In this document: in pieces, positions 1,829 through 58,018 of the stretch | Position numbering within the stretch: the stretch's first letter is position 1 | Layout of the letters: the number at the start of each line of letters is the position of its first letter | Assembly (NCBI GenBank): GCA_030390025.1 | Contig: CM059432.1 | Span: 88,848,001 to 88,912,000 of the forward strand | Length of the DNA stretch: 64,000 nt | Direction of reading: 5' to 3' | Source of the DNA: Squalus acanthias | Lineage: Eukaryota | Notes under the pieces: generated by a model | Database searches by the model: none | What the model was told of the DNA's origin: nothing | Seen by the model: only the letters and a program-made list of their open reading frames with translations | Made by a program: the position numbers and the translations under genes

Positions 1829-3517
1829 TTGGGGTGCCCCACTGACACCCCACTGTAACTTGTGGGGTACCGCAAGGATCAGTGTTTGGGCCTCGGCTAT
1901 TTACAATCGATATTAATGACTTAGATGAAGGGACCGAGTGCAATGTATCCAAATTTGCTGATGATACAAAGCTAGGTGGGAAAGTAAGCTGAGAGGAGGA
2001 AACAAAGAGCTTGCAAAGGGATATAGACAGGTTAAGTGAGTGGGCAATAAGATGGCAGATGGAGTATAATGTGGGGAAATGTGAGGTTATTCACTTTGGT
2101 AGGAAGAATAGAAAAACAGAATATATTTTAAATGGTGAGAAACTATTCGGGGCAAAATTCGGTTGCTTTGCGCCTCCCGTTAGCACCCGAAGCAACTAGT
2201 GCCTGGGTGCGGTGCCGCTAATGCCACCCGCGAAATTCAGGTTGTCGGTAGCTGTAGGCGCCCCGCGGCGCTGCGACTCTGGCGATGATGTCATCGCCGT
2301 GTGCAGCACTCCGGCCGTAAACTTCGGTTGCGACAGGGTCAGGGGGGCGTACGTGCAGCCGGGGCAGCGATATTTGAAGGGGAGGTGCTGGGCAGCCATT
2401 TTTTTTGCTGGCCACCTGCCCCCTTTGCCCTCCTCCCGCGGGGTGCCGGCTGCGATTGGGCAGCCCGGCATTCCTCTTAAGTACCGGGCTCTTTTGCCGG
2501 CACATCGCTCCCTGGTGGCGCTGCTGGGCCCCGGTTCGCGGTGTGCAAGGCCCCTCCCCTTTAATAAGGGGAGGAAGGCTTGCATAACCGCAGCGCGATG
2601 TTCCAGTGCGCGTGACGCTGCAGCAAATAGCACCGCAATATTGAGCTGGAGTGCACCAAGAGGGATGGGGAGCGCTTCCAGTAGTGCCATGTCTCCTGCT
2701 TGGGGCGCTACCACTCAATTTCGGGCACGGGGGCACTATCTTTTTTGGGGCGTTAAAAGTAGCGCCCTGGCGAAGTTAGCGCCCCATAGGGGGCGCGACC
2801 CAATTTTTCCTTCATTAAATCTTGGTATTTAGAAAGATTTAGGTGTCCTTGTACAGGAAATACAGAGAGTTAACATGCAGGTACAGCAAGCAATTAGGAA
2901 GGAAAATGGCATGTTGGCATTTATTGCAAGGGAGTTGGTTTACAAGAGTAAGGAAGTCTTGCTACAATTGTATGTGGCTTTGGTGAAACCACACTTGGAG
3001 TACTGTGCACAGTTTTGGTCTCCTTATTTGAGGAGGGATATACTTGCCTTGGAGGCATTGCAACAAAGGTTCACTAGATTGATTCCTAGGTGAGAGAGTT
3101 GACTTATGAGGAGAGATTGAGTAGATTGGGTGTATACTCTCTGGGGTTTAGAAGAATGAGAGGTGATCTCATTGAAACATATAAGATTCTGAGGGGGATT
3201 GACAGGGTAGATGCTGGAGAGTCTAGAACTAGGGGGCATAGTCTCAGGATAATGGTTGGCCATTTAAGACTGAGATGAGGAGAAATTTCTTCACTCAGAG
3301 GTTTGTGAATCTTTGGAATTCTCTACTCCAAAGGGCTGTGGATGCTGAATCGTTGAGTATATTCAAGGCTGAGAGAGATAGATTTTTGGACTCTTTGGGA
3401 ATCGAGGGATATGGAGATCCGGCGGGAAAGTGGGTTGAGGTCGAAGATCAGCCATGATCTTATTGAATGGCGGAGCAGGCATGAGGCCTACTCCTGTTCC
3501 TAATTCTTATGTTCTTA
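1829..3517 (+). mobile_element. 5'-truncated CR1 LINE (RT C-terminus and 3' tail), interrupted by a MITE
   Basis: [14 protein letters not shown] coding sequence, ORFs 2011, 2875, 3090 and 3275, and the TTCTTATG-type tail at ~3503-3517. Confidence 0.92.
2148..2813. mobile_element. Harbinger-type MITE (family M1)
   Basis: 3-bp TSD ATT (2145-2147 / 2814-2816); imperfect TIRs; the CR1 rejoins across it; homologous to 39190-39920 and 58456-59150. Confidence 0.9.
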
Positions 3518-6219
3518 CAGCCAGCATAGATTTGTTAATGGCAAGTTATGTTTAATGAATTTAGTCGAGATTTTTGAAAATGTGACTGATTGGATAAAGG
3601 GAAAGCAGTAGATGTGTCATACATAGATTTTTAGAAGGTGTTCAATAAGGTGTTTTACTCAAAAGTCAACCAGTCTGGTTTATAGTTCACTGACTTTTCC
3701 ATCCAAGATGACTGCTAGCAGTTTGTTAGATAAATTCAGGCATGGTATGAAAGGAAATGTAGCAGCATAGATAGAAAGTTGGTAAAGGAGACCAAAAGAA
3801 TTAGGGTGAATGGGTGTTGCTCGGATTGTAAGAAGATTGGAAGTGGTGTACTCCAGTGGTAATTGTTGGCTCCACTTTTGTTCTTGCATATATATTTGGA
3901 CTTGTGCATAGGGAGCATGATATCAATATTTTCTGATGACATAAAAATAAGCAATAGTGTGGCAGGCTCTAAAAGACTCCAGAAGGCTGTCAGACTGGGC
4001 AGATAGGTGACAGATGCAATTGACTATGGATGTTTGAGGTAATATATTTTGGCAGAAAAGATATTGAAGGATGTGATTCCACATCTTGAGCAACCTAATC
4101 AGCGGTCCTTAAAGGGACCACTGGACACCGCTCATAAAAGACAGTGTCCAGTTATTTTGGACAAAGGGTGAAAACAGGCGCTGAATGAGTGCAGTGCTAA
4201 TAAGACTAGCCTGTTTGAAAATATGCATTTAGCACACAATTTTAGTCCGAATTGCTGATTACCATTATTTGAACTTACCTGGAGGTGCTAAACGGACACC
4301 GTGGCCTAGAAATTCAGCACCGTAGCACCCGATTTTTCGGCGCTACAGGTACCGTTTTGCGTCCAAATTGGTGTCCGCACCGCACACGCACACTTCTGGT
4401 GTGGGTCGCACCGGACGCCATTTTGGTGAGGTCGTTTGTGCCAGCACAGGGAGCATGCAGAGTATGCAGGTCATGACGTCAATCAGCGCGCAAAGCTGAT
4501 TTGATGCCAACGCTGCCATTTTCGACCTCAACACTGGAGCTAATGCCGTCTCTTAACTTTCCACAGCCGAACATGCGTTCAGCAGCACCAAGGACCCCCA
4601 CACCAGCGTTATTTAAAGGATTCATCAACTGCTTTCAGGTTAGTTGCTGATTGACTTTTACTGGCTCTAGTTGAGTTTGTAGAGGTGTTTCTTAGTTTGG
4701 TGTCTTATTTGATGTTGCTGAAGTCTCAACGGAGTGGTGTAGCAGGTTACTTCAAGGCTTCTGCTCGGAACAGTTGCTCCCAGACATGGGTGCTGTAGTT
4801 TGTATCCCCCTTGGCCTGCAGCATGATAAGGAAATTGAGCAGAGGTGACACAGAGGAGGACGAGATACTCGAAGAGGGAGGAGGAGGAGGAGAAGCACTC
4901 TCAGCAGGAGGTCATATCCACCCAGGGTCGTCAGAGAGCAATTCTCCTACCTCAACTTCAGCGAGGAATAGTGCATGCGACATCTCCGCTTCACTAAGGA
5001 GGTGCTCACTGAAATCTGCCACCTGTTGCAGGCAGACCTGCAGTCTCGGAGCAGGGCGAGAACGGCATTGCCACTGGTTGTGAAGGTGAGCGTTGCCATG
5101 AATATTTATACATCGGACTCCTTCCAGGCTGGAGCAGGAGACATTTGCAACATTTCACAGTTCGCGGTTCACTGTTGCATAAGGGAGGTCACCGAGGATA
5201 TGTTTGCAAAGAGAGGTGAATACATTTCATTCACGCTTGCCAGAGAGAAGCAGACAGACAGAGCGAACATGCGGCTTCAAAAGGATAGCAGGCTTCCCCA
5301 TGGTGCAGGGTGCCATTGACTGCACACATGTTGCTTTGTGGGCACCGGATGTGAACTCGGAGATGTACTGAAACCGGAAGGGATTCCACTCCCTCCATGT
5401 CCAGCTGGAGTGCGACCATACTCAGCACATCATGCAAGTCAATGCTCAGTATCCTGGCAGCAGCCATGATGCCTTCATTCTGCAGCAATCCGCTGTACCA
5501 TCTGTATTTGATCCACCATGATAAACCAGAGGTTGACTACTGGGTGACCACATGGCTCATGCAACCCAAGTACACATGGGCAGCATGCATATTTTTTTTT
5601 ACTATTCGCTTATGGGCAAGGCCAGCATTTATTGCCCATCCCTAGTTGCCCTTGAGAAGGTGGTGGTGAGCCGCCTTCTTGAACCGCTGCAGTCCGTGTG
5701 GTGAAGGTACTCCCACAGTGCTGTTAGGGAGGGAGTTCCACGATTTTGACCCAGCGACGATGAAGGATCGGCGCTATACTTCTAAGTCAGGATGGTGTGT
5801 GACTTGGAGGGGAACTTGGAGGTGGTGGTGTTCCTATGCGCCTGCTGCCCTTGTCCTTCTAGGTGGAAGAGGTCGTGGGTTTGGAAGGCACTGCCGAAGA
5901 AGCCTTGGCGAGTTGCTGCAGGGCATCTTGTAGATGGTACACACTGCAACCACGGTATGCAGCGGTAAACCACGGTGGAAGGAGTGAATGTTTAAGGTGG
6001 TAGAAGGGGTGCCAATCAAACGGGTTGCTTTGTCCTGGATGGTGTCGAGCTTCTTGAGTGTTGTTGAAGCTGCACTCATCCAGGCAAGTGGAGAGTATTC
6101 CATCACACTCCTTACTTGTGCCTTGTAGATGGTGGAAAGGCTTTGGGGAGTCGGGAGGTGAGACACTCACCACAGAATACCAAGCATCTGACTTGCTCTT
6201 GTTGCCACAGTATTTATGT

Positions 6220-6970
6220 CGACGTCGATGACAAAGTCCAACACCGCCTTCAGTGTGCCAGTGCAGCCTTCGGTCACCTGAGGAAGAGAGTGTTTGAAGA
6301 CGAGGACCTCAAACCCGGCACTAAGCTCATGGTCTACAGAGCAGCAGTGATACCTGTCCTGCTGTATGCCTCAGAGACATGGACCATGTACAGCAGGCAC
6401 CTCAAAGCACTGGAGAGGCACCACCAATGCTGCATCCGCAAAATCCTGCAAATCCATTGGCAGGATAGGCACACCCATGTCAGTGTTCTTGCTCAGGCCA
6501 ACATCCCCAGCATCGAAGCTTTGACCACGCTCGATCAGCTCCAATGGACGGGTCACATTGTCCACATGCCCGATACGAGACTCTCAAAACAAGCGCTCTA
6601 CTCGGAGCTCCGGCATGGCAAGAGAGCCCCAGGTGGGCAGAGGAAACGCTTCAAGGACACCCTCAAAGCCTCCTTGAAAAAGTGTAACATCCCCATCGAC
6701 ACCTGGGAATCCCTGGCCCAAGACTGCACAAAGTGGAGGAGAAGCATCCGGGAAGGCGCCGAACACCTCGAGTCTCTTCGCCGGGAGTAAGCGGAAGCCA
6801 AGCACAGGCAGCGCAAGGAGCGCACGTCAACCCAAGCACCTGCTCCTTCAACCACTGTCTGCCACACCTGTAGGTCCCGCATTGGACTCATCAGTCACCT
6901 GCGAATTCATTTTTAATGTGGAAGCAAGTCATCCTCGGTTCCGAGGGACTGCCTAAGAAGGGGGGAGAAG
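6220..6970 (+). mobile_element. 5'-truncated RTE (BovB-like) LINE
   Basis: ORF 6116 (TKLMVYRAAVIPVLLYASETWT, GGQRKRFKDTLK), C-terminal zinc-finger remnant, GACTGCCTAAGAAG tail; exact 8-bp TSD ATTTATGT (6212-6219 / 6971-6978). Confidence 0.93.
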
Positions 6971-9350
6971 ATTTATGTGGCTGGTCCAGTTAAGTTTCTG
7001 GTCAATGGTGACCCCCAGGATGTTGTTGGTGGGGGATTCAGCGATGGTAATGCCGTTGAATGTCAAGGGGAGCTGGTTAGACTCTCGCTTGTTGGAGATA
7101 GTCATTGCCTGACACTTCTGTGGCGCGAATGTTACCTGCCACTTATCAGCCCAAGCCTGAATGTCATCCCGGTCTTGTTGCATGCGGGCATGGACTGCTT
7201 CGTTATCTGAGGAGTTGTGAATGGCGCTGAACACTGTGCAGTCATCAGCAAACATCCCCATTTCTGACCTTATGTTGGAGGGACGGTCATTGATGAAGCA
7301 GCTGAAGATGATTGGGCCTAGGACACTGCCCTGAGGAACTCCTGCAGCGATGTCTTGGGGCTGTGATAATTGACCTTCAACCACCACCCTTTGTGCTAGG
7401 TATGACTCCAGCCAGTGGAGCGTTTTCCCCCTGATTCCCATTGACATCAGTTTTACTAGGGCTCCTTGATGCCACACTCGGTCAAATGCTGCCTTGATGT
7501 CAAGGGCAGTCACTCTCACCTCACCTCTGGAATTCAGCTCCTTTGTCCATGTTTGGACCAAGGCTGTAATGAGGTCGGGAGCCGAGTGGTCTTGGCGGAA
7601 CCCAAACTGGGCATCAGTGAGCAGGTTATTGGTGAGTAAGTGCCACTTGATAGCACTGTCGATGACACCTTCTATCACTTTGCTGATGATTGAGAGTAGA
7701 CTGATGGGGCGGTAATTGGCCAGGTTGGATTTGTCCTGCTTATTGTGGACATGACATACCTGGGCAGTTTTCCACATTGTCGGATAGATGCCAGTGTTGT
7801 AGCTGTACTGGAACAGCTTGACTAGAGGCACGGCTAGTTCTGGAGCATAAGTCTTCAGCACGATAGCCGGGATGTTGTCGGGACCCATAGCCTTTGGTGT
7901 ATCCAGTGTGCTCAGCCGTTTCTTGATATCACGTGGAGTGAATCGGCTGAAGACTGGCTTCTGTGATGGTGGGGACCTTGGGAGTAAGCTGATATGGATC
8001 ATCTACTCGGCACTACTGGCTGAAGGTGGTTGCAAACGCTTCAGCCTTGTCTTTTGCACTCACATGCTGGGCTCCACCATCATTGAGGATGGGGATATTC
8101 ATGGAGCCTCCTCCTTCCGTTAGTTGTTTAATGGTCCACCACCATTCACGACTGGATGTGGCAGGACTGCAGAGCTTTGATCTGATCTGTTGATTGTGGG
8201 ATCGCTTAGCCCTGTCTATAGCATGCTGCTTCCGCTTTTTAGCATGCATGTAGTCTTGTGTTGCAGCTTCCCCAGGTTGGCATCTCATTTTTAGGTACGC
8301 CTAGTGCTGCTTCCGGCATGCTCTTCTACACTCCTTATTGAACCAGGGTTGGTCCCCTGGCTTGATGATAATGGTAGAGTGAGGGATATGCCGGGCCATG
8401 AGCTTACATATTGTGGTGGAATACAATTCTGCTGCTGCCCCACAGTTCCTCATGGATGCCCAGTTCTGAATTATCCCATTGAACATGGTGGTAATGCTCC
8501 ACAACACAATGTGAAGACAGGACTTCATCTCCACAATGACTGTGCAATGGTCACTGCTACCAATGCTATCATGGACAGATGCATCTGCGACAGGTAGATT
8601 GGTGAGGACAAGGTCAAGTAGGTTTTTCCCTCGTGTTGGTTCTCTCACCACCTGTCACAGGCCCAGACTGGCAGTTATGTCCTTCAGTGGTGCTACCGAG
8701 CCGCTCTTGGTGATGGACATTGAAGTCCCCCACCCAGAGTACATTCTGTGCCCTTGCTACTCTCAGTGATTCTTCCAAGTGGTGTTCAACATGGAGGAGT
8801 ACTGATTCATCAGCTAAGGGAGGACGGTAGGTGCTAATCAGCAGGAGGTTTCCTTGCCCATGCTTAACCTGAAGCCATGAGACTTCCTGGGGTCCAGAGT
8901 CAATGCTCAGGATTCCCAGGGTATACCACTGTGCCGCCACCCCTGGGATGGTGATGGAGGAGTTTGGGACATTGGCTGAAAGGTATGATTCTGTGAGTGC
9001 AGCTCTCCCAATTTTGGCACAATCCCCCAGATGTTGGTGAGGAGGAGGATTTTGCAGGGTCTGCCATTGCCAAGGTAGATGCCAGGTGGTCCCTCCAGTT
9101 TCATTCTTATTATGTTTTGTAGCGGTTAGTTACAGCTGAGTGGCTTGCTAGGCCATTTCAGAGGGCAGTTAAGAGTCAATCACATTGCTGTGGGTCTGGA
9201 GTCACATATAGGGCAGACCGCCAGACCAGGTAAGGACGTTAGTGAACCAGATGGGTTTTTACGACAATCTGATAGTTACCATTACTGATGCTAGCTTTTT
9301 ATTCCAGATTTATTTAATTAACTGAATTTAAATTCCCCAGCTGCCGTGGT

Positions 9351-9426
9351 GGAATTTGAACTTGCGTCTCTGGATCATTAGCCCAGGCTTCTGGATTACT
9401 AGCGCAGTGATATTACCACTACGCTA
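9351..9426 (-). promoter_or_regulatory. RNA Pol III type-2 internal promoter (A and B boxes) at the LINE 5' end
   Basis: A box TAGCGTAGTGG (9416-9426) fits TRGCNNARYGG; B box GTTCAAATTCC (9351-9361) fits GTTCRANNC. Confidence 0.8.
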
Positions 9427-9653
9427 CCGTTCCCCTATAATGAAAGTTATGCTGCCATATGTAATGTGATCGAGCTGGCCATTGGGGTCCTTAAACAAAG
9501 TTTGGCTGCCTGGGCTGCTCTGGAGGAGCCCTGCAGTATTCACCAGAGCTCGTCTCAAGATTCGTCATGGTCTGCTGCATGCTGCACAACCTCGCCATCA
9601 TGAGGGCACATCCCTTGCCACCAGGTATACTGCGAAGAGCTAAGGAGGAAGAG

Positions 9654-10116
9654 AGAAAGAAAGACTTGCATTTATATAGTGCCTTTCACGACCACTGGAT
9701 GTCTCAAAGCACTTTACAGCCACTGAAGAACTTTTGAAGTGGAGTCACTGTTGCAATGTGGGAAACATGGCAGCCAATTTGCGCACAGCAAGCTCCCTCA
9801 AACAGCAATGTGATAATGACCAGATAATCTGCTTTTATTATGTTGGTTGAGGGATAAATATTGGCCAGGACACCGGGGAGAACTCCCCTGTTCTTCTTCA
9901 AAATAGTGCCATGGGATCTTTTACGTCCACTTGAGAGAGCAGACAGGGCCTCTGTTTAACATCTCATCTGAAAGACGGCACCTCCAACAGTGCAGCACTC
10001 CCTCAGCACTGCTCTGGAGTGTCAGCCTAGCTTTATGTGCTCAAGTCCCTGGAGTAGGACTTGAACCCACAACCTCCTGACTCAGAGGCGAGTGGGCTAC
10101 CAACTGAGCCACAGTT
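9654..10116 (-). mobile_element. tRNA-derived Deu-domain SINE (SacSINE1-like)
   Basis: Head TGGCTCAGTTGG...GGTTCAAGTCC, Deu-type core (GGACGTAAAAGATCCCATGGCACTATT), tail TATATAAATGCAAGTCTTTCTTT; GAAGAG on both sides. Confidence 0.85.
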
Positions 10117-10507
10117 GAAGAGGAAGAGGGGAAGGAAGAGGAGGAGGAAGAGGAATGGAAGAGGCAACCACGACAGCCCCTTTCTGGCCGGGCTGCCAGT
10201 GATTAACTGATACAACTGCGGTACCAGTGAAACCAACCCCAATTCCCCATTCACCCACAGTCCAACACCTTACCTTAACTCTGTTACTGACCATCGCAGC
10301 ATCCTCTTGGCCACAATGCTACAATAAAGGCCACCATTCACAAACAAACATTCCAAACCAATTTTATACATCAATCCATCTAAGATTACATAACAAAGTC
10401 AACTAATCACCCTTGTGCATTCCCTTAGTGCCTGTCTCCCATGTGGCTTTGACTATCCTAGTGCTCCTATGAAGTGCTAGCCCAGTGGCACTGATTTGAC
10501 ACCAGTG

Positions 10508-10657: not shown

Positions 10658-10850
10658 CACCAGTGGTGCCATTTTGGAGCTCAATGCTTCAGCCAATGCC
10701 CTCTCTTAAGCTCGTACAGCTGAACACGCGTTCAGCAGCAGGAAGGACTCCCCACCAGCGATGTTAACGGGATCATCAACTACATACAGCTTAGTTGCTG
10801 GTTGATTGCTTCTGGCTGTTGGTAAAATTCTACAAGTGTTTGGTGCTTTC

Positions 10851-12518
10851 TAAGAACATAAGAAATAATAGCAGGTGTAGACCATTCGGCCTCTTGAGCC
10901 TGCTTCGCCATTCAATAAGGTCATGGTTGATCTTCCTCAACTCCACTTTCCTGCACTATCCACATATCCCTTGATTCCCTTAATATCCAGAATTCTATCG
11001 ATCTCTGTCTTGAATATACTCAACGACTGACCATCCACAGCTGAGTGAAGAAATTCCTCCTCAGCTCAGTCATAAATGGCCGACCCCTTACTTTGTGACT
11101 ATGACCCCTAGTTCTAGACTCCCCAGCCAGGGGAAACATCCTCCCTGCATCTACCCTGTCAAGCCCTGTAAGAATTTTATGTTTCAGTGAGATCACCTCT
11201 CATTCTTCTAAACTCTAGGGAATATAGGCCTAGTCTCCTCAACCTCTCCTCATAGGACAATCCCACCATCCCAGAAATCAGTCTAGTGCACCTTCATTGC
11301 ACTCCTCTAAGGTAAGTATATCCTTCCTCAGGTAAGGAGACAAAAACTGTACACAGTACTCCAGGTGTGGTCTCACCAAAGCCCTATATAACTGCAGTAA
11401 GACGTCTTTACTCTTTTACTCCAAACCTTTTGTAATAAAGGGCAACATACCATTTGCTTTCCTAATTGTTTGCTGTACCTGCATGTTAACTTTCAATGAT
11501 TCGTGTACAAGGACACCCAGGTCCCTCTGAACACCAACATTTCCCAATCTCTCTCAATTTAAAAAATATTCTGCTTTTCTATATTTGTTACCAAAGTGGA
11601 TAACTTCACATTTCTCCACATTTTATTCCAGCTGCCTTGTTCTTGCCCACTCACTCAACCTGTCTATATCCCCTTGAAGCCTCTTTGTGTCCTCCTCACA
11701 ACTTACTTTCCCATCTAGCTTTGTATCGTGGTGTTTGTATTTAGATACATTACACTCAGTCCCCTCATCTAATTCATTGATATAGATTGTAAATAGCTGA
11801 GGCCCAAGCACTGATCCTTGCGGTACTTCACTAGTTACAGCCTGCCAACTCGAAACTGACCTGTTTATTCCCACTCTCTGTTTTCTGTTCTTTCACCAGT
11901 CCTCAGTCCATGCTAATATATCACTCCCATCCCATGAGCCCTAATTTTATGTAATAACCTGTTGTGTGTCACCTTATCAAATGCTTTTTGAAATTCCAAA
12001 TACACTACATTCACTGGTTCCCCCTTATCTACCCTGTTACTTACAACCTCAAAAAACACTAACAAGTTTGTCAAATAAGATTTCTCTTTCATAAATCTGT
12101 GTTGACTCTGCTCAATCATATTATAATTTTCTAAGTGCTCTGTTGCCACATCCCTAATAATAGATTCTAGCATTTTCCTTACTACTGATGTCAGGCTAAC
12201 TGGTCTATAGTTCCCTGTTTTCTCTCTCCCTCCTTTCCTAAATAGCAGGTATACATTTGCTACCTTCAAATCTGCTGGGACCGTTCTAGAAGCTAGGGAA
12301 TTCCGGAAGATCAAAACCAATGTATCCATTATCTCTGTAGCCACATCTTTTAGAACCTAGGATGTAGACCATCAGGTCATGGGGATTTGTTGGCTTTTAG
12401 TCCCATTAATTTTGCCAATACTATTTCTTTACTAATACTAATTTCTTTAAGTTCCTCATTGTCACTAGACTCTTGGTTCCCCATTATTTTCAGAATGTTT
12501 TCTGTGTCTTTTTCCGTT
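10851..12518 (-). mobile_element. 5'-truncated CR1 LINE
   Basis: RT ORFs 11913 and 11623; AAGAACATAAGAA tail; the Harbinger leader rejoins across it with TTCTA at both junctions. Confidence 0.92.
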
Positions 12519-12620
12519 CTACAGTTATTTCAAGTTGCAAAATTCTAAAGGGAGAGGTGTGGCATGTTCTAGGGACTTTTGTGACTTCAAGGCTTCTGCA
12601 CAAACCACTTGCTGCCAGAC

Positions 12621-13749
12621 ATGGATGCACTAGTAGGCATTGCCCTTGGAAAACAGCGTGACTTGGAGTATGAACAGCGGTTACACAGAGCAGGACAAGC
12701 TGCTGGAAGAGTGAGGAGGAGGAAGGGGTGAAGGGCTTTCAGCAGGAGGTCATATCCACCCCACATATTCAGCGAGCAATTCTCTTACCTGATCCTCAGC
12801 GAGGAACTAGTGTGTGACGTCTGTGCTTCAATAAGGGCATCCTCACTGAATTCTTCCATCTGCTGCTGCCACAACAGCAACCTCAGAGCAGGGCAAGGAC
12901 CGCATTGCCAGTGGCTGTGAAGTTGACCTTGGCAATGAACTTTTTGCGTCTGGCTCTTTCCAAGTTGGAGCTGGAGATATTTGCAACATCTCACAGTTTA
13001 CCATGCACTGTGCGTGAAGGAAGTCACTAAGGCTCTCTCTTCAAAGAGAGGTGACTACATTTCATTTTCTCTTGTCAGAAACAAGCAGGTGGAGCAAGCA
13101 CACGGCTTCGCTAGGATTGCAGGCTACCCCATGGTGCAGAGTTCCATTGACTGCACGCACATCACTTTGCAGGCACCGCATGTCAACTCTGCCATATACC
13201 TGAACCGAAAGGGATTCCACTCCCTCAACAACCAGCAGCTGATGTGCGACCAGAGCCAGTGAATCATGCAGGTCAATGCCCAATATTCTGGCAGCAGTCA
13301 TGATGCCTTCATTCTGCCGCAGTCCACTGTGCCAGCTGCATTTGAGCCATCACGGCAAACCGAAGAGTGGCTATTGGGTGACCAGGGCTATCCGCTGATG
13401 ACATGACTCCGATGCGCAACCCATGCGCAGAATGCGTACAGTGAAAGCCACGGTTCCACAGGAAATGTGATAGAGCAGATCATTGGCATGCTGAAACAAC
13501 ATTTCCACTGCCTGGACCACCCTGCAGTACTTGGCAGAGTGGATGCCAAGACATGTGGTGGTCCGCTGCATGTAGCACAACCTCGCCATCATGAGGGCAC
13601 AGCTCTTGCCACCAGCTATACAGCGAGCAGCTGAGGAGCAGGAGCATGAGGAGTAGGAAGAGGAGGAATAGGAATGGAGGAGGCAACCTAGACAGCTTCT
13701 TTCTGCCCGGGCTGTGCGCAAAGATCTCATCCAAGTGAGATACCAGTAA
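12621..13749 (+). pseudogene. HARBI1-like transposase pseudogene (copy 2)
   Basis: ORF 12981 ([29 protein letters not shown]), WLLGDQGYPL, acidic tail; multiple stops and frameshifts. Confidence 0.9.
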
Positions 13750-13921
13750 CCACAACCCCAATCTCCATTCATCAGCAGTCACACACCTTACATTCCCTGT
13801 GTTACTGACCATCACAGCATCTGCTTGGCCACAATGCAAAAATAAAAGCATTCCAAACCAAATTTATAAATGAAATCATGCTATAATGCATTTAAAAGTC
13901 AACTAGTCACCCTTGTGTCTT

Positions 13922-14535
13922 TCATTTGCCTTTGCCTGTTCTAGTGCCCCTATGCATTGCTACCACAGTGGCTGCAGCATAGCTGGTGGAAGGCTGCTGA
14001 CTTTCAGTGAGGGAGACTGCAGATGGCCTTGGAGGATGATCTCGAGCGGCTCTGGGCCTAGAAGGCCCGACTGTAGACTGCACCATCTCGGCATGGGCGG
14101 CAGTAGTCTGGACTGGCTGGCTGACAGGCAGCAGCAAGGGCACTGGCGGAATGGCTTTGGTGGGAGGATGAATGCTGTCATCCTGAGAGAGGACAGCAGG
14201 TTCGTGCTCCATAGAGACACTGACACTCCCCTGGGGTGGCGCCTCAGCAATCCTACTGATCTGTTGGACAGATTGATGGACTGCTGTGACACCCTGCAAG
14301 CCCGTTTGCACACTGTAATCCATAGCCATGATGGCAACAGCCTGAGCTTGCATGGCAGCCCTCAGACGTTGGGTGGCTGCTGCTTGTGCTGCAATGGAAG
14401 CTGTGACATTGGCAATCAGAGGCTGCATCATGGTTGCGTTCACAAGTGTGCGAATGGAGTTGGCCACCACTTCCATGCTGGAAAGGATGGACTCCAAGCT
14501 CTGTGAAAAGCTCTGTGCCAAGTTGGTGCTGGACT
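13922..14535 (-). pseudogene. 3' exon of the Harbinger Myb/SANT accessory gene (coiled-coil / low-complexity part)
   Basis: The 199-aa ORF is homologous to ORFs 52609, 54580 and 16488, which lie downstream of Myb exons in sister copies; convergent with the transposase. Confidence 0.75.
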
Positions 14536-14577
14536 TATATCGATATATTTATAGATATTGGGGCAGCTATTGCGGTG

Positions 14578-15385: not shown

Positions 15386-15769
15386 CAGAACATAGGAACA
15401 GGGGTAAGCCATTCAGCCCCTTGTGCCTATTCCACCATTCATTTATATCAGGGCAGATCTGTACCTCAATTCCATTTACCGCTTTTGTTCCATATCCCTA
15501 CCCTTACCTAACAAATCTATCAATTTCAGTCTTGAATATTTCAATTGTCCCAGCACCTACAGCCTTTTGAGGGAGCAAGTTCCAGATTTTCACTACCCTT
15601 TGTATGAAAAAGTGCTTCCTGATTTCACTTCTAAATAACCTAGCTCTAATTTTAAAATTATGCCCTCTTGTTCTGGACTCCCCCACCAGAGGAAATAGTT
15701 TCTCTGTATAAACCTATCAAACCCTTTTTCCATTTTAAATACTTCAATTAGATCAACCCTCAACCTTCT
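15386..15769 (-). mobile_element. CR1 LINE 3' fragment
   Basis: ORF 15504 (GESRTRGHNFKI...FFIQRVVKIWNLLP) and AGAACATAGGAAC tail. Confidence 0.85.
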
Positions 15770-16250
15770 TGCCTGGATCGATACACCTTCAACAACACTA
15801 TCCAAGAGACAGCAGTCCGCTTGATTGGCACCCATCCACTGGCTTAAACATCCACTCCTTCCACCACTGGCACGCCATGGCTGCTGTGTGTATTTACAGG
15901 ATGCACTGCAGCAACTCGCCAAGTCTTCTTTGGCAGCACCTCCCAAACCTGCGCTCTCCACCACCTAGTTTCTGTCATGGAGCCACACTTATGGGAACAC
16001 CATCATCTTCAAGTTCCCCTCCAAGTCACACATCATCCTGACTTGGACATATATCGCCCTTCCTTTATTGTCACTGGTTTAAAATCATGGAACTCCCTCC
16101 CTATATAGCATTGTGGGGGCACTTTCACCACACAGACTGCAGTGGTTCAAGAAGAAAGCTCACCACCACCACCTTCTAAAGGGCCACTAAGGATGGGCAA
16201 TACATGCCAACCTTGCCAGCAATGCCAACGTACCAAAAATGAATTAAAAA
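15770..16250 (+). mobile_element. Diverged 3' fragment of the LINE family seen at 5593-9435
   Basis: LNIHSFHH...VCIYRMHCSNSP is homologous to ORF 5834; GGATGGGCAATACATGCC tail plus an A-run. Confidence 0.85.
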
Positions 16251-39920: not shown

Positions 39921-40226
39921 TAAATCTGTGTCCCCTAGTCCTTGTACCATCAACTAATGGGAACAGCCTTTCCCTGTCTAGCCTATCCAAACCCATCATA
40001 ATCTTGTACATCTCTATCAAATCACCCCTCAACGTCCTTTGCTCGAATGAAAACAAATCCAGCTTCTCCAACTTGTCCTTGTAGCTAAGATCCCCCATCC
40101 CCGGAACCATTCTGGTAAATCTCCTCTGCACCCTGTCAAGGGCCTTCACATCCTTCCTAAAGTGTGGTGATCACAAATGGATGCAATACTCCAGTTGTGG
40201 CCTAACCAGTGCTTTATAAAGGTTCA

Positions 40227-42060
40227 TGCTGAACAAATATTTTGTTTCAGTCTTTACGGTAGAGGACACTAAGAATATCCCAACACTGGACAAACAGGGG
40301 GCTCTAGCGGGGGAGGAGCTAAATACGATTAAAATCACTAAGGAATTGGTACTCAGTAAAATAATGGGACTCAAGGCAAATAAATCCCCTGGACCTGATG
40401 GCTTACATCCTAGGGTCTTGAGGGAAGTGGCAGTAGGGATTGTGGATGCTTTGGTAATAATTTTCCAAAATTCCCTGTACTCATCAAAGGTCCCGGCAGA
40501 TTGGAAAACTGCTAATGTAACACCCTTATTTAAAAAGGGTAGTAGGCAGAAGGCTGGAAATTGTAGACCAGTTAGCCTAACATCTGTGGTGGGTAAAATT
40601 TTGGAGTCTATTATTAAGGAGACAGTAACGGAACATTTAGATAAACATAATTTAATAGGACAAAGTCAGCATGGCTTTATGAAGGGGAAGTCATGTCTGA
40701 CAAATTTGCTTGAGTTCTTTGAGGACATAACGTACAGGATGGATAAAGGGGAACCAGTGGACGTAGTGTATTTAGACTTCCAGAAGGCATTCGACAAGGT
40801 GTCACATAAAAGATAAAAAATCACTGGATTGGGGGTAATATTCTGGCATGGGTGGAGGATTGGTTATCTAACAGGAAGCAGAGAGTTGGGATAAATGGTT
40901 CATTCTCGGACTGGCAACCAGTGGCCGGTGGTGTTCCACAGGGGTCGGTGCTGGGTCCCCAGCTCTTTACAATCTATATTAATGATTTGGAGGAGGGGAC
41001 CGAGTGTAACATATCAAAGTTTGCAGATACAAAGATGGGAGGTAAAGTAGAAAGTGAGGAGGACATAAAAAACCTACAAGGGGATATAGACAGGCTGGGT
41101 GAGTGGGCAGAGATTTGGCAGATGCAATACAATATTGGAAAATGTGAGGTTATGCACTTTGGCAGGAAAAATCAGAGAGCAAGTTATTATCTTAATGGCG
41201 AGAAACTGGAAAGTACTGCAGTACAAAGGGATCTGGGGGTCCTAGTGCAAGAAAATCAAAAAGTTAGTATGCAGGTGCAGCAGGTGATCAAGAAGGCCAA
41301 CGGAATGTTGGCTTTTATTGCTAGGGGGATAGATTATAAAAACAGGGACGTATTGCTGCAGTTATATAAGGTATTGGTGAGACCGCACCTGGAATACTGC
41401 ATACAGTTTTGGTGTCCATACTTAAGAAAAGACATACTTGCTCTCGAGGCAGTACAAAGAAGGTGCACTCGGTTAATCCCGGGGATGAGGGGGTGGACAT
41501 ATGAGGAGAGGTTGAGTAGATTGGGACTCTACTCATTGGAGTTCAGAAGAATGAGAGGCGAACTTATTGAAACATATAAGATTGTGAAGGGGCTTGATCG
41601 GGTGGATGCGGTAAGGATGTTCCCAAGGATGGGTGAAACTAGAACTAGGGGGCATAATCTTAGAATAAGGGGCTGCTCTTTCAAAACTGAGATGAGGAGA
41701 AACTTCTTCACTCAGAGGGTAGTAGGTCTGTGGAATTTGCTGCCCCAGGAAGCTGTGGAAGCTACATCATTAAATAAATTTAAAACAGAAATAGACAGTT
41801 TCCTAGAGGTAAAGGGAATTAGGGGTTACGGTGAGCGGGAAGGAAATTGGACATGAGGCTGAGTTCGGATCGGTCAAGGCCCTGTGGGTGGCGGAGCGGG
41901 CCCAGGGGCTGAGTGGCCGGGTCCTGCTCCTACTTCTTGTATTCTTTAGATTTGAGGTTAGGATCAGATCAGCCATAATCTTATTGAATGGCGGAGCAGG
42001 CTCGAGGGGCCGATTGGCCTACTCCTGCTCCTTTTTCTTATGTTCTTATGTTCTTATGTT
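40227..42060 (+). mobile_element. Young 5'-truncated CR1 LINE with a doubled 3' end
   Basis: Long RT ORFs 40226 (196 aa) and 40852 (334 aa); (TTCTTATG)3 tail. Confidence 0.95.
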
Positions 42061-43770
42061 CAGCATAACTTCTCTACTTTTGTACTCAATACCTCTATTT
42101 ATGAAACCCAATATCCCATATGCTTTGCTAACCACTCTCTCAATATGTCCCGCCACGTTCAGGGACCTATGCACATTAACTCCCAGGTCCCTCTGTCCCT
42201 GCACACTCTTTAAAACTGTGCCATTAAGTGTATATTGCCTCTCCCTGTTTCTTCTACCAAAATGCATCACCTCACACTTCTCTGTATTAAATTCCATCTG
42301 CCACTTGTCTGCCCATTCTGCTCGCCTTTCTATGTCCTGTTGCAGTCGATTGGTATCATCATCACTGTTTGCCACACTCTCAAGTTTGGTGTCATCGGCA
42401 AATTTAGAAATTCTACTCTGTATTCCAATATCCAGGTCATTTATATATATCTAAAAAAGCAGTGGCCCCAGCACTGACCCTTGGGGAACACCACTGTCTA
42501 CCATCCTCCAGTCTGAAAAACAGCCATTTACCACAACTCGCTGTTTTCTGTCCTTAATCCAATTCCTTATCCAAGCTGCCACTGACCCACCTATTCCATG
42601 AGCCTCAATTTTGGCAACCAGCCTTCTATGTGGTACTTTGTCAAATGCCTTCCAAAAATCCATGTAGACAACATCCATTGCATTCCCTTCATCAATCCTC
42701 TCTGTTACTTCATCAAAAAATTCAATTAGATTAGTCAAACATGATCTGCCTTTTACAAATCCGTGTTGGCTCTCCTTAATTAGCTTAAACCTCTCCAAGT
42801 GCCCGTTAATTTTTTCCTTGATTATTGTTTCTTAAACTTTACCCAACACTGATGTTAAACTGACCGGCCTGTAGTTACTAGGATTGTTCTTACACCCTTT
42901 CTTGAACAATTGTGTCACATTTGCCACTTTCCAATCCTCAGGCACCTCCCCCGCATCTAGGGAAGATTGGAAAATTATGGCAAGCCCTTCCGCTAATTCC
43001 TCCCCCAATTCCCTTAGCAACCTGGGATGCAAGCCATCTGGACCAGACGACTTATCCACTCTAAGCATACCCAGCCTTTCTAGTACATCCTGCCTATCAA
43101 TTTTCACCCCTTCCATTGCTTCTACCTTTTCCACTTCTACTGATATTTTATCAGCATCCACCTCCTTTGTAAACACCGATACAAAGTAGTCATTGAGAAT
43201 TCTAGTCTTGCCCTGCACCTCTAAGCATATATCACCTTTGTTGTTCCTAATGCTACCCACCTCGCCTCTTACTACCCGCTTACTGTTTACATGCCGATAG
43301 AAGATTTTTGGGTTCCCTTTTATGTTAACCACCATTCTACTCTCATATTCTCTCTTTGCCAATCTTATTTTCATCTTCACTTCCCCTCTCAACTTATTGT
43401 ATTTGGTCTGGTTCTCCCTAGAAGAATTCACCTGACATTCATCATACACCCTCTTCTTTTGTTTCATCATCTTCTCTGTCTCCCTTGTCATCCAAGGAGC
43501 CCTTGCTTTGGTTCCCTTACCCTTCCCTCTTGTTGGAATGTACCTAGCCTGTACTTGGAACATCTCCTCCTTAAAGATCTCCCATTGTTCCGTTACAGTT
43601 TTTCCTGTCAGTCTTTGGTTCCATTTTACCCTGGCTAGATCCTTTCGCATCCCATTGAAGTTAGCCCTATTCCAGTTTAGAAGTTCCACTCTAGATTGTT
43701 CCTTGCTACTCTCCATTGCTAATCTAAATCTTATGATACGATGATCACTCATACCCAAGTGTTCTCCCAC

Positions 43771-44851: not shown

Positions 44852-46556
44852 GGACTGAATTTTGCTGGCGCTCAGAGGGCGGGTTCGGAGACGGGTCCGC
44901 TGTCAAAATCAAAAAGATTGACAGTGGGGCGGTATCCCACTCTAAACCCGCTTCCTTGTCAGTTTCCCTAGTGCCGGCTCTGCCTGCGCTTTGCAGACCC
45001 GGCACGAAGCAGCGAGTCATGGAATTGTGCTAGTTAAGAGAGTGTTTAAAGCAATTTAATCCCCATTTTACCAGGTACAAAGCATTTTGCCAAGTTTTCC
45101 ATGAGGTTCCTGTCGCTTGGGGATCACACAAGGTAAGTATGTCGGGTTCTGAACAACTCTCCATTTCTTTGAATAGGTGACAGCTGCAAAAGTGGTATAA
45201 AAGCTACCATTTTGCAGCTGGTCACTTTCCAATCTCAGAAGCTGGAGCATTAATGATTTGGAACCCACTTTTGAGCTTTATGCACTTTTGAAGTGTTTGG
45301 AGTAATCTCTCTAGCCACTGTCACCTCCTTGGAACAACCTATCTCAACACTGACAGATTACATCTGTCATCTCAACCTCACCTGCCATCTATTCCATCAG
45401 CATCGGTGCCCTTGAAAAAATCTCACTTGGGTCCTCAGAATCCCACCATGATCAGCCCCAACACCAGCATCACCGGGCACACCAGGAACACCAACATCCA
45501 CACCAACCTCCTCCGCAATCAATTGATGCTGCACTGGACACAGGGCATCATCACCCATGCACATTACTGCCCGGGTCACCAGCGATGGCCTCACCATGTC
45601 CCGATTTGCTTCACTTAACACTGAACACCGTGGCTGCCACATGATGCACCAGGTTGGCACCACCCCAGACCAGCATCATAAAGCATCCTTACAATGTCCA
45701 AGCCATTCCTTTCACACTCATCACCATTGCAGGGGTGGGGGGAGGTTAACGTTATGTCTCACCATTCACTGCAACTCACTAAGACACTTCCAAAGGTGCA
45801 CACAAATCTGTCCAAGAATGCAAAGTGTTGAAAATAAAGATTTCAATGTTTGACAGCACATTACCAGATACTTCACATGAACATTGGCTAAACCACTCAA
45901 GTGCCTACTGTTGTGTGTTCTTAGTTGGTATGCTTGCAGTAGGATGAGGGTAAGTGTGAGAGGTGGCTAGTGAGATGGGGAAGTGATAATGTAAATAGAG
46001 AGGGATGAGTGGAGGTGCAAGGTAAGTTGGTTTTAGTAAAGATGTGCAGGATTATGGTAGGGAAGGCAGAGTGATGGGGATGTGATGAGTGGCACAGTAG
46101 GATGAGGTTGAGTGTGGCTTGGCAGTAACGTTTCGTGATCTACTGAGATAATTGAAAGGTTTGCGCCACTGCAGCCTGGTCCTCCTGACCACATCCCTGC
46201 TTGTGCTCTCTTGTGCAATGTGCAACCAGGCTGCGTTGGTCTCCTGGAGAGGTGTCTTCTGCCCATTGGAAGGGAAGAGAACCTCCCTGCGTGCTGTGAC
46301 TCCCTCCATAAGCATATACAGGGAGTCATGGGAGAGCCTGGGTAGAGCCGTGCACCTTTGTGCAGTGCTTGTCAGTGTTTGCAGCACATCAATGCTGTAG
46401 AACACTGACAGCACAACTGTCAAAATCAATTTGGACTTAACAAGCCCAATCAGGGCAAAATCACTTGGAGGAGGCGGGATGAAGACGGGTGCGGAGTTTG
46501 AGGCCGCTGTCAGCTCCGGCTGCACCGGACTCACCACAGCTGGCGAAATCGCGGCC
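44852..46556. mobile_element. Non-autonomous Harbinger family B element with a Myb exon-1 remnant (-, ~46125-46365)
   Basis: TIRs GGACTGAATTTTGCTGG / CTGGCGAAATCGCGGCC; LPRLSHDSLYMLMEGVTARREVLFP...AAWLHIAQE is homologous to ORF 60666. Confidence 0.85.
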
Positions 46557-46652
46557 AGGAGCAGGCCAATTGTCCCATTGAACTGGCTCAAATATTTAGG
46601 TATCGATGGCAGTTGTAATTTTTACAAGCCCAATTCTTCACCCTTTTAGCAT

Positions 46653-46860
46653 GGGGGTAATTTCTGATTTCACTCGCCCAGTAAGGAGCTTCGTCTGCCC
46701 AAACATGCACATTGAAAAATTTTTGTGCACGTGGCCCACAATTTTGCAACCATTAATTTAAATGGTTGAGAAATGATGCATGGTGGTGCCCAAATTTCCA
46801 AAATGTGCTGTGGCCAGGCAAGAGTCCTTGCCAGCAACACAAATTTAGAAAATTACCCCT
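46653..46860. mobile_element. 208-bp Harbinger-type MITE
   Basis: TIRs GGGGGTAATTTCT / AGAAAATTACCCCT; TSD CAT (46650-46652 / 46861-46863). Confidence 0.8.
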
Positions 46861-47835
46861 CATATCCCTTAATACCCTTATTTATCAAATATGTATCCTC
46901 TTTAAACACCTCAGCCTAGAAATTCAGTTGCGTAGCGCCCGTTGTTTGGGCACTATGGTTGCTGAATTGGGACCAAAATGGCATCCGAGCACCGGGAGCA
47001 CACTTCTGCGGTGGGCGGCGCCGGATGCCATCTTGGTGAGAGCAATAGAGCAGCCGTTAGGAGCGTGCGCTATAAGTATGGTAAGTAGGCAGATCGTCAC
47101 GTCAATCAGCGTGCAATGCTGATTTGACGCCAGCACTGTCATTTTCGTCATCAGCGCTGGAGCTAATACCCTCTCCTCACCTTGCACAGCTGAACATGCA
47201 TTCAACAGCAGAAAGGACCCCCCCCCCCTGCCACCAGCGATATTTAAAGGGATCATCACCAACTTTCAGGTAACTTGCTTTTTGATTTCTACTGGCTCTG
47301 TGTAAGTTTGTGGAAATGTTTGGGGCTTTCTAGAGTTATTTAAAGTTGGTGAGGTGACAGGGAGTGGGGCTGCAAGTGGAGAAGGCCTTGCTTGTGACTT
47401 CAAAGGTTCTGGTCAGACCACTTGCTCCCAGTCATGGGTGCTTTAGTTGTCATCCCTCTTGGCCTGCAGCATGACAGGGAGATGGAGCAGAGGCAGCAAA
47501 GAAGAGGACAAGCTGCTCACAGAGGAAGGAGGAGGAGGGCGCTCAGAAGGAGACCTTACTCACCTAGGGTCTTCTGACAGCAATTTTCTAACCTCAACCT
47601 GAGCCTGGAGCATTGTGTGAGGCATCTGAGCTTTACGAAAGAGGTGCTCACAGAACTCTGTGACATTTTACAACCAGACCTGCAGCTTCAGGGTAAGCAC
47701 AGCACTGCCAATGGCAATGAAGGTGACCATGGCCCTGAATTTCTTTTCATCGGGATCCTTCCAGGTTGGAGCAGGTGATATCTGTAACATCTCACCATTC
47801 GACATCCACTGCTGCATAAGAGAGGTGATAGATGT

Positions 47836-50800: not shown

Positions 50801-51706
50801 GGCGTGTGTGCTGTGAGGAGGATGCAGAGAAACTCCAGTATGATTTGGACAGGTTGGGTGATTGGGCAGATGCATGGCAGATGCAGTATAATGTGGATAA
50901 ATGTGAGGTTATCCACTTTGGTGGCAAAAACAGGAAGACAGATTATATCTGAACGGCAATAGATTGGGAAAAGGGGAAGTGCAACGAGATCTGGGAGTCC
51001 TTGTGCACCAGTAGCTGAAGGTAAGCATGCAGGTGCAGCAGGCGGTTAAGAAGGCAAATGGTATGTTGGCCTTCATAGCGAGAGGATTCGAGTACAGGAG
51101 CAAGGATGTCTTGCTGCAGTTGTACAAGGCCTTGGTGAGACCACACCTTGAGTATTGTGTGCAGTTTTGGTCGCCTTATCTGAGGAAGGATGTTCTTGCC
51201 ATGGAGGGAGTGCAGCGAAGATTTACCAGACTGATACCTGGGATGGCAGGAATGACGTATGAAGAGAGATTGGGTCGATTAGGCTTATATTCACTAGAGT
51301 TTAGAAGAATGAGAGGGGATCTCATTGAAACTTATAAAATTCTAACAGGACTAGACAGACTAGATGCAGGAAGGATGTTTCCGATGGCGGGGGAGTCCAG
51401 AACCAGAGGTAACAGTCTAAGGATAAGGGGTAAGCCATTTAGGACTCAGATGAGGAGGAATTTCTTCACCCAGAGATTGGTGAACCTGTGGAATTCTCTA
51501 CCACAGAAGGCAGTTGAGGCCAATTCATTAAATATATTCAAGAAGGAGATAGATATATTTCTTAAGGCTAAAGGGATCAAGGGATATGGGGAGAAAGCAG
51601 GGGCAGGGTACTGAATTTGGATGATCAGCCATGATCTCATTAAATGGCGGAGCAGGCTCGAGGGGCCGAATGGCCTACTCCTGCTCCTATCTTCTATGCT
51701 TCTATG
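47836..51706 (+). mobile_element. CR1 LINE: ORF1 C-terminus plus near-complete ORF2 (EN-RT), disrupted
   Basis: GVFASAVGEGLN* ORF1 end; EN motifs (IGITETWL, VYRPP, MGDFN, SDHN); RT ORFs 49404, 50578 and 51027; CTTCTATG tail. Confidence 0.95.
48069..48823. mobile_element. Harbinger-type MITE with an internal hairpin and (CT)n loop
   Basis: TIRs GGGCTGGATTTT / AATATCCAGCCC; inserted at the start of the CR1 EN coding region. Confidence 0.85.
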
Positions 51707-53107
51707 CTTTATGCCAGGAGAGAGGACTTCATTGTCTTCTCTCTGACCAGAGAGAAGCAGATGGAGCATGCACGTGGCTTTGCCAGGATAGTAGACTTCC
51801 CATGCTACAGGGCGCTATCGACTGCACGCACGTGGCTTTGTGGGCACCGTATAGAAATAATGAGATGTCCCGCCGCAAAGGTTACCGCTCGTTGAATGTG
51901 CAGTTGGTGTGCGACCATGCTCAGCACATCATGATGGTGAATGCCCAGTATCCTGGCAGCAGTCATTCTGTGCCAGTATGCTGTTCCCTCAGTCTTTGAG
52001 CCAGAAAGACAAACCAGATGGTGTCTACTGGGCGACAAGGGCTATCCCTTGACCACCTGGCTCATCGCTCCGCAACCCAACCACACGTGGCCAACATGCG
52101 TACAACGGTAGCCAATCTGCCACACAAAACATCATAGAGCAAACCATTTGGCTGCTGAAGCAACGGTTCTGCTGCCTGGCCCACTCTGGAGGAGCCCTGT
52201 AGTACTCATGTCCTGATTCGTCTTGGTCTGCTGTATCCTCCACAACCTGGCCATCATGAGGGCACAGCCCTTGCCATCAGGGATATGGCCACCAGCTCAG
52301 GAGAAGGAGGAGGAAGAGGAGGAGGAGGAGGAGGAGGAAGAGCAGGAAGCAGAAGAGGAGGAGGAGGAAGCGGAAGTTTGTAGGCAACCCAGACAGCCCC
52401 TTTCTGGCCGGGATATCCGGGATCGAATCATCCACCTGCGGTACCAGTGAACGCAACCCCTAATTCTCCATTCAACAACAGTCCCACACCTTACCTTCCC
52501 TCTGTTACTGACCATCACAGCGTCCTCTTGGCCACAATGCTGAAATAAAAGCCATGACAAAGCAAACATTCCAATCAAACTTTACCCATCTGTCCATCCA
52601 ATATTACATCAAAAAATCAACTCATCACCCTTGTGCATTCCCTTAGTGACTGTCTTGCATGCGCCTTTGCCTATCCTAGTGCTCCTACGCAGTGCTACCC
52701 CAGTGCCTGCAGCATGACTGGTGGAAGGCTGCTGACTTTCAGTGGGGGAGACTGCAGATGGACTTGCAGGATGACCTCGAGGAGCTCTGGGCCGAGTAGG
52801 CCCGGCTTTGGACTGTACCATCTCGGCATGGGCGGCAACAGTCAGGCAACAGTATGGACACTGGGGGAGTGGCAGTGGTGGGAGGACAAGTGCTGTCATC
52901 CTGAGAGAGGACAGCAGGTTTGTCCTCCACAGATCCATTGTCACTCCCCTGGGGCAACCTCTCAGCAATCCTAGTAATCTGCAGAGTACAAACTGCTGGA
53001 TTGTTGTGACAGCCTGCAAACCCCTTTCAACACTGGTAAACCCAGCCATGATGGCAGCAGTCTGTGTTTGCATGACTTCAGTCTGAGCTTCCATTGCAGC
53101 ACTCAGA

Positions 53108-57573: not shown

Positions 57574-58018
57574 TGGCTCAGTTGGTAGTTGTGGGATGGG
57601 CAATAAATGCTGGCCTTGCCAGTCTCACCCACATCCCAGGAACAAATTAAAAAAAACCCTGCTAGTTGCTCTAGCATGTAATCTAGTCTGACACTTTAGT
57701 GCAGTAGTGAGGGAGTGCTGTATTGTTGGAGGTGTTTCAAATGAGATGTTAAATCAAGGCCTCCCTGTTCAGCTGGATATCAAACATTCCGTGGTGCTAG
57801 TCAAAGATGAGCAGCAAATTCTCCCATTTCTCCATCCATTAATACCACCAAAAACAAATGAATTCATTTACTGTTTGTGGGTCCTTGCTAAGGCTGCTGA
57901 GTTTGCCTACCTAACAACATTGACTGCGCTTCAAACGGAATCCATTGGTTGTAAAGGGCTTTGGAATGTCCTGAGGATGTGATAAGTTACTATGCAAATG
58001 CAATTTCTTCCCTTCTTT
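57574..58018 (+). mobile_element. Old Deu-SINE with a short LINE-tail insert (~57592-57657)
   Basis: TGGCTCAGTTGGTAG head, degenerate Deu core and GCAAATGCAATTTCTT tail; the insert GGGATGGGCAATAAATGCTGGCCTTGCC...A8 matches the tail of the 5593 LINE. Confidence 0.7.

Follow-up and report, generated by a model that had tools for sequence, protein, structure and literature searches.

A tRNA-derived head with Pol III promoter boxes and a shortage of sense-strand T-runs in the Zenon LINE family of sharks and a ray

The 64,000-nt stretch of the Squalus acanthias genome analyzed here (contig CM059432.1, positions 88,848,001 to 88,912,000; hereafter the window) carries on its minus strand, from 9435 to 5593, a decayed copy of a 3.3-kb long interspersed nuclear element (LINE) with one open reading frame (ORF). 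By sequence comparison, the element belongs to the elasmobranch Zenon family (CR1 group), of which it is a dead copy. The tRNA-derived head at its 5′ end, with the A and B boxes of an RNA polymerase III (Pol III) promoter, is a constant component of this family, in sharks as well as in a ray, and not a one-off chimera; the feature is real, old, and conserved. The boxes at a fixed 5′ end, the strand-specific loss of Pol III terminators, and the lack of a standard start codon all point toward an autonomous LINE driven by Pol III, which is the best reading of these sequences and, in our estimation, a reasonably probable one.

Results

Anatomy of the window element and its family

The features of the element and of related fragments in the window are listed below (EN, endonuclease; RT, reverse transcriptase; SINE, short interspersed nuclear element; TSD, target-site duplication; UTR, untranslated region).

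9345..9435, minus: tRNA-derived head, with a Thr-like AGT anticodon arm and a second similar arm; acceptor stem absent, by eye
9434, minus: first G of the family
9416..9426, minus: A box of the type-2 Pol III promoter, seen by eye in 7 of 7 published elasmobranch consensuses
9352..9361, minus: B box, with one substitution in the window copy
9130..9344, minus: SINE-like body or 5′ UTR, common to the companion SINE; 3′ half conserved across sharks and a ray
9148..9156, minus: ATG-GCC-TAG mini-ORF, in the same frame as the long ORF
9132-9130, minus: second in-frame stop, TAA, downstream of the mini-ORF in the long-ORF frame
9102..9104, minus: conserved ATG that in the master is not in the EN-RT frame and begins an overlapping ORF of 48 codons
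6971..9129, minus: single ORF, 5′ part, with basic N-terminus, APE endonuclease, linker, and RT
about 8844-8695, minus: Pfam stretch of the APE endonuclease, inside the 5′ part of the single ORF
about 7732-7043, minus: RT, inside the 5′ part of the single ORF
6220..6970, plus: nested 3′ fragment of an RTE-type LINE, not part of the Zenon family
6212-6219 and 6971-6978: 8-bp TSD ATTTATGT flanking the nested RTE fragment
5642..6219, minus: single ORF, C-terminal part
5593..5641, minus: 3′ tail, a short UTR with a deletion in the window copy and an A8 tail; common to the companion SINE
5633-5628, minus: AATAAA in the 3′ tail
5590..5592, plus: TSD TAT, left copy
9436..9438, plus: TSD TAT, right copy
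15686..16217, plus: older 3′ fragment of the Zenon family, 77.6% identical; no sense TTTT in 15770-16250
57593..57655, plus: isolated 3′ tail of the Zenon family or its SINE

The window copy has decayed through stops, frameshifts, and short deletions. Pfam recognized RVT_1 in it (E=5e-38) and, below its cut-off, Exo_endo_phos_2 (E=6e-4); the scan gave no match for the nested fragment at 6220-6970, whose RTE label comes from an earlier reading of the window (the original prediction) and is taken over here as an assumption. That reading had also held that head and LINE moved together, and this proved correct: TAT stands at both ends of the element, the host site is a transposase-like frame, and removal of the element and one TAT gives QHAYNESYAA (flanks read by eye), where the sister host transposase near 52093 reads QHAYNGSQSA.

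A family consensus was built from 19 copies, namely 18 fetched from the genome and that of the window, with L037 and L039 left out. It is about 3.3 kb long and consists of the tRNA head, a body of about 250 nt, a 970-codon frame, a short UTR with AATAAA, and an A tail, and the copies diverge from it by 3.0-5.8%. The single ORF contains APE and RT and there is no ORF1, EN and RT coming right after the leader as originally predicted; A-rich tails were found in 19 of 20 fetched copies and in 8 of 8 copies picked by their RT. Both properties agree with those given for Zenon. No intact copy was found among the 117 best RT matches, in which the longest open frame had 834 codons. Purifying selection on one EN-RT frame is established at the level of sequence: the nonsynonymous-to-synonymous ratio of non-CpG variants was 0.76-1.0 for those common to at least three copies, compared to 2.27 in singletons. 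Between species, 34 differences were tested of 40 listed, with 344 further ones beyond that list (six low-depth rows were dropped), and it was found that 26 equaled the consensus, 6 were silent, 2 changed a residue, and none made a terminator.

In a quick RT tree of 66 rows, the family fell outside the CR1 clade and grouped (support 81-90) with moth, beetle, and lancelet proteins; this tree, which had no starred clade and no labelled Zenon reference, agrees loosely with Zenon, without strong support. A metagenome scan returned 57 distant relatives (28-44% identity), and the body motif was not found in viral contigs. Only one of the relatives (L103) has an A/B-box-like pair upstream of its RT, at 518-570, probably by chance, but 10 sense TTTT runs.

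Many private deletions of about 5-40 nt were seen in nearly every copy, though substitution divergence is only 3-6%; short deletions occur at a high rate in this genome. The A tails at the 3′ ends of the copies (L031-L058) are often T(n)A(n) and self-complementary, which suggests conversion after insertion.

A 2026 paper describes Zenon in five elasmobranchs as a family that lacks ORF1, ends in poly-A, and is still missing from repeat repositories (PMC13343379). The family studied here is the same as SquAca_, CarCar_, ScyCan_, RhiTyp_, and HypSab_Zenon-1 of that paper, and the first 400 nt of SquAca_Zenon-1 (length 3314), compared by eye, match our consensus at all but a few positions. The family is therefore already catalogued, as the original prediction had anticipated. 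In the accessible parts of PMC13343379, we did not find the head, the terminator avoidance, the missing AUG, or the partner SINE described: tRNA, polymerase, promoter, and start codon are unmentioned in the main text, and the supplement rows are without tRNA.

The head is a fixed 5′ part of the family

The predicted tRNA-like head with A and B boxes was found, the boxes lying at 9426-9416 and 9361-9352 on the minus strand, with the A box starting 8 nt after the element start. Two similar tandem hairpins stand between the boxes (9407-9371, minus strand), an anticodon-like arm and a near copy of it, and the second varies between species. In a sister copy of the family, the match of the head to the Rfam tRNA model was weak, at 14.5 bits (gathering score 29); the alignment comprised a D arm, an AGT anticodon arm, a 22-nt insertion, and a T arm, spanning positions 7-64 of 71 with the acceptor stem not covered. 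ARAGORN called no tRNA in the head, and ARAGORN and Rfam at the gathering score found nothing in the window. Because the head is without an acceptor stem and matches the tRNA model weakly, a promoter relic would fit better than a tRNA mimic.

The genome (3.7 Gb) was searched with the 5′ 836 nt, which gave 44 matches from 40 scored of 12,297 candidates (not a copy number); of 20 longer stretches fetched, the 3′ tail was reached in 19. The start was placed at 51 loci, at base 1 of the head in 39, at bases 2-4 in 9, and at bases 11-13 in 2, with 1 headless, so that 48 of 51 begin at most 4 nt from head base 1, a count that is biased because 49 of the 51 loci came from head-containing queries. The preceding base is variable. 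In a less biased test, eight copies were picked by a long RT frame from 117 listed: two were full length and both started with the head, six were 5′-truncated into unrelated DNA, and none had an alternative 5′ end. Likewise, when loci were picked by head and body (20 of 40 listed), 19 of 20 continued into coding sequence and 1 was interrupted. A head type that is older and more diverged also adjoins EN, at a single interrupted locus that is the only one at which the older subfamily was sampled, and the body-EN bridge is present in contigs from two other organisms. The expectation that full-length copies start at the head was borne out. No consistent long TSD was found in the 18 copies scanned of 22, the best adjacent match being about 6-7 nt.

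All seven published elasmobranch Zenon consensuses (5 species, 2886-3314 characters; PMC13343379), read by eye, open with the A and B boxes and have no TTTT in the visible 400 nt, and the boxes are kept across the five species while the arm between them changes. Three other Zenons in that paper (two from hagfish and one from coelacanth) have no such head and several T-runs, although their first 400 nt may include flank. A search with short motifs, without alignment, for known SINE bodies (Meta, UCON3, Deu, V, and CORE) gave no match in two of the three MetaSINE supplement files and only two stray matches in the hagfish supplements.

T-runs are depleted on the sense strand

Vertebrate Pol III is terminated by stretches of at least four T. 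The sense strand of the window element, with the nested RTE fragment excluded, has no TTTT, compared to 14 runs of four or more A (12 in the 5′ part and 2 in the 3′ part, including the tail), and TTTT is also absent from the sense (plus) strand of the 15770-16250 copy. Both absences had been read by eye in the original prediction, as had the abundance of TTTT in neighbouring LINEs, which we counted as 42 T-runs in 13,322 nt of CR1 and RTE sense strands. The consensus likewise has no TTTT, and its 7 TTT runs (about 20 expected) include none with T-V directly before; it thus has no internal T4 or TVTTT on the sense strand, and TTTT and TVTTT have been reported to be the shortest working, moderate terminators (PMC8466645). 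Taken alone, the absence of TTTT is statistically modest, with P=0.021 against base shuffles and P=0.056 against synonymous shuffles with Phe codons freed.

Broader counts gave a clearer depletion. TTT occurs in the ORF 5 times compared to 11.2 expected (P=0.005), and T-rich five-mers once compared to 12.5 expected, a value as low as which was reached in 0 of 500 shuffles, with A, C, and G not depleted. Terminator-like sites number 1 on the sense strand versus 5.6 in synonymous shuffles (P=0.009), and 32 versus 30 on the antisense strand. Over 27 copies (80,355 nt), which stem from few masters, the observed/expected ratio of TTTT was 0.09, compared to 0.96 on the antisense strand and 1.14 in 13 CR1/RTE control segments, a comparison with controls that the original prediction had called for. 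The depletion is therefore confined to the sense strand and sets the family apart from the other LINEs of this genome. Phe makes up 1.86% of residues, compared to 2.34-5.65% in 11 relatives, and is rarer than in all 11. Two metagenome relatives had terminator-like counts of 14 versus 9.0 (L063, with no A/B box pair found upstream) and 8 versus 4.5 (L069, without its 5′ end).

The long frame lacks a standard start

The original prediction had the EN-RT frame begin directly at the ATG at 9104, which did not hold: this ATG is in frame with EN only through deletions in the window copy, whereas the 17 copies without these deletions have it in another frame, at a distance of 83 nt upstream of the reference EN codon, where it opens the 48-codon overlapping ORF. 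The conserved AUG is found in all five species, and the ray keeps the same offset despite a 6-nt length difference (by eye). The first in-frame Met of the long frame is residue 284. Because no AUG stands in frame directly before the endonuclease in the master, initiation would be non-standard.

The upstream ATG of ATG-GCC-TAG is kept in 49 of 53 rows and is in the EN frame in this genome; the motif is also in the EN frame, without a further stop, in three of the other four species (by eye). Its TAG is replaced by CAG or GAG in 12 of 53 rows, and in this genome the TAA lies further on as a second stop. The relatives have a Met start, often with a basic extension ahead of EN, comparable to the Arg-rich stretch that the EN frame has in this family. 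Translation may begin by read-through or reinitiation, through a −1 shift, or at a non-AUG codon.

An ACG start at consensus 351 (34 of 53 rows) was weakened as a candidate by its reading ACA or AAA in the other four species. In folding, the head was not unusually stable (z=-0.9), and values of z=-0.06 for the conserved body and z=-1.9 for the whole leader leave an internal ribosome entry site fold in the leader without energy support.

A companion SINE has the same head, body, and tail

A companion SINE of 440-470 nt is made up of this head and body followed immediately by roughly the final 100 nt of the LINE. It was found at no fewer than 13 of 20 fetched short loci and once in L035, and its joint is also in contigs of all four other runs. 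The SINE consensus is 91% and 89% identical to the head-body and 3′-end parts of the LINE, respectively. The 5′ head with A and B boxes is as in SINE2 elements, but the short, non-coding, and non-autonomous state of that class is found only in the companion and not in the 3.3-kb EN-RT element. Since head, body, and tail are common to both, there is a direct route between SINE and LINE. The LINE may have captured the front of a SINE, or the SINE may have arisen from the LINE by internal deletion.

The neighbourhood of the element

Other repeats of the window are as follows.

9656-10118 (minus) and 59901-60355: another tRNA-headed SINE, two copies, 85% alike
4300-5590 with 9439-10490; 12525-14550; 45900-47830; 51712-53170; 60612-62587: decayed two-gene DNA transposons
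10850-12480, 40226-43770, 48780-51610, 53198-54583, 56643-57338: ordinary CR1 copies of several subfamilies, which served as controls

The tRNA-headed SINE presumably resembles the Deu-domain SacSINE1. The two-gene transposons, which we take to be of Harbinger type, have transposase-like and Myb/SANT-like frames and are heavily nested with LINEs; Pfam gave no match for the three of their frames that were scanned. The nearest named protein fragments are from sharks (Heptranchias, Pristiophorus, Rhincodon, and Heterodontus). Fragments of the Zenon LINE protein sit inside predicted shark genes in public annotation (P0001, P0008, P0011, P0013, and P0014) and are probably annotation artefacts.

Discussion

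In the proposed mechanism, TFIIIC would bind the A and B boxes and Pol III would start at the first G; with T-runs selected against, Pol III would cross the 3.3 kb and stop at a T-run in the flank. The uncapped RNA would be translated without an in-frame AUG directly before EN: ribosomes might read through the AUG-GCC-UAG mini-ORF or reinitiate after it, might start at the conserved downstream AUG and shift by −1 near GCA-AAG, or might use a non-AUG codon. EN-RT would then bind the 3′ tail, insert the RNA by target-primed reverse transcription, and also mobilise the companion SINE. Transcription of the Zenon element by Pol III is probable on these sequences, whereas we would give translation of the same RNA an even chance. 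The complete scenario, in which a single 3.3-kb Pol III RNA is translated uncapped via a non-standard start, has been kept since the shark-ray split, and drives a promoter-bearing SINE, we hold to be about evenly balanced. The original idea of selection for Pol III read-through thus retains the fixed head and the depleted T-runs and loses the direct ATG.

Several results weigh against a Pol III-driven LINE. Uncapped RNA is usually poorly translated, and the AATAAA in the tail fits Pol II as well. In the comparison with codon shuffles that had been proposed originally, the terminator-like sites were depleted, but the absence of TTTT alone gave only P=0.117, and P=0.22 against a first-order Markov model; TT dinucleotides are generally low, at 0.70 of expectation, and the 27 copies behind the observed/expected ratio are non-independent. 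Terminator-like sites are a little scarce in the pooled CR1 frames, too (33 versus 39.0, P=0.066), and one CR1 segment has 0 versus 2.5 (P=0.027). Four TVTTT-creating variants are common to two or three copies, three of them at CpG. At a point about 120 nt into the head, 4-10 T stand in ten of the 17 heads of the older type (one of them joined to EN), which so contain the internal T-run that the consensus lacks; the other 7 have 3 T at the same place, and the run is broken in 4 of 4 young-type heads. An old master may have tolerated TTTT, or these T-runs may have grown after insertion beside an A-run, as has been described for B2 terminators, in which T-stretches beside A-runs grow in old copies (PMC8466645).

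If the head were a relic or a Pol II element, and the family were transcribed by Pol II from an internal or neighbouring promoter as in other LINEs, the scarcity of T-runs could come from a base composition that is generally rich in C and poor in TT, or from selection acting on U-rich RNA signals to remove them, and the head could be kept through 5′-end exchange between SINE and LINE. The low TT, the Markov result, the older heads, and the AATAAA near the tail are all in keeping with this, as is the report that LINE clades differ in base composition, thought to be under selection (10.1101/788562). We nevertheless consider it unlikely in view of the precise start 8 nt ahead of the A box, the retention of the boxes in five species while the intervening arm changes, and a depletion that is T-specific and sense-specific and survives codon shuffling. 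A division of labour, in which Pol III makes the copied RNA, itself no mRNA, while other copies supply the protein in trans through capped Pol II read-through transcripts, would account for the head and the missing terminators and would suit the lack of an in-frame AUG before residue 284 and the companion SINE, which shows the RT working in trans. However, purifying selection on the ORF in head-bearing lineages is easiest to understand if the copied RNA encodes its own protein, and a Pol II read-through RNA would meet the same missing AUG; we regard this division as improbable.

The 5′ end would likewise be fixed, the RNA uncapped, and initiation non-standard if RNase P cut the tRNA-like fold from longer Pol II transcripts, in the role that 5′ ribozymes have in other ORF1-less LINEs. 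This appears very improbable: the acceptor stem is absent, the 5′ end, by eye, does not pair with what follows the T arm, the fold of the head has no unusual stability, and the T-run depletion would be left unexplained. That a SINE and a truncated LINE fused just once, at this locus, has nothing in its favour beyond the free SINE that carries this head, and the explanation is refuted, to the point of being hardly conceivable, by the same junction at dozens of loci and in five species.

If Pol III does drive the Zenon LINE, a high-copy vertebrate LINE with a Pol III head at a fixed place, 3.3 kb free of terminators, and no ordinary start codon would break the division in which LINEs belong to Pol II and SINEs to Pol III, and its RNA would be a rare protein-coding Pol III transcript and, if translated, a natural vertebrate Pol III mRNA. 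It would serve as a natural test case for the ability of Pol III to make a long RNA that is translated and for the way in which translation begins on an uncapped RNA, and the compact single-ORF element could serve as a retrotransposition model.

We found no description of a Pol III-transcribed autonomous LINE in the literature, Repbase Reports, Dfam, and subscription journals lying outside the search. Ingi/Vingi elements are said to include tRNA-headed members. LINEs are generally regarded as Pol II mRNAs and SINEs as short non-coding Pol III RNAs (PMC10886601, PMC5786205), and the processivity of Pol III is held to limit length, with non-LTR (long terminal repeat) retrotransposons being Pol II transcripts (PMC10886601). 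A possible precedent is RTE-1_DAn together with related elements, LINEs said to hold a tRNA-like sequence, although they belong to the RTE clade and the position of that sequence, its boxes, and the polymerase are not stated in the accessible part of PMC5786205. Cassandra, Helenus, and Ajax (TRIMp3) resemble the Zenon LINE in having a Pol III promoter outside the SINE class, but they are non-autonomous LTR elements of 311-1263 bp (PMC10886601). In Bov-tA, SINE2-1_ACar, and CoeSINE4, a tRNA head is joined to LINE-derived parts, as here, but these elements are short, have no coding sequence, and belong with partner LINEs for which the accessible text does not describe the head (PMC5786205, PMC4494074), whereas here the full coding LINE has it. 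The lepidopteran Zenon with its internally deleted Persaeus (PMC6740152) is similar in that it belongs to the CR1 group, has one ORF and a poly-A tail, and is accompanied by a short derivative composed of both its ends; Persaeus is stated there to be without tRNA homology or a Pol III promoter, whereas in the elasmobranch family both partners carry one.

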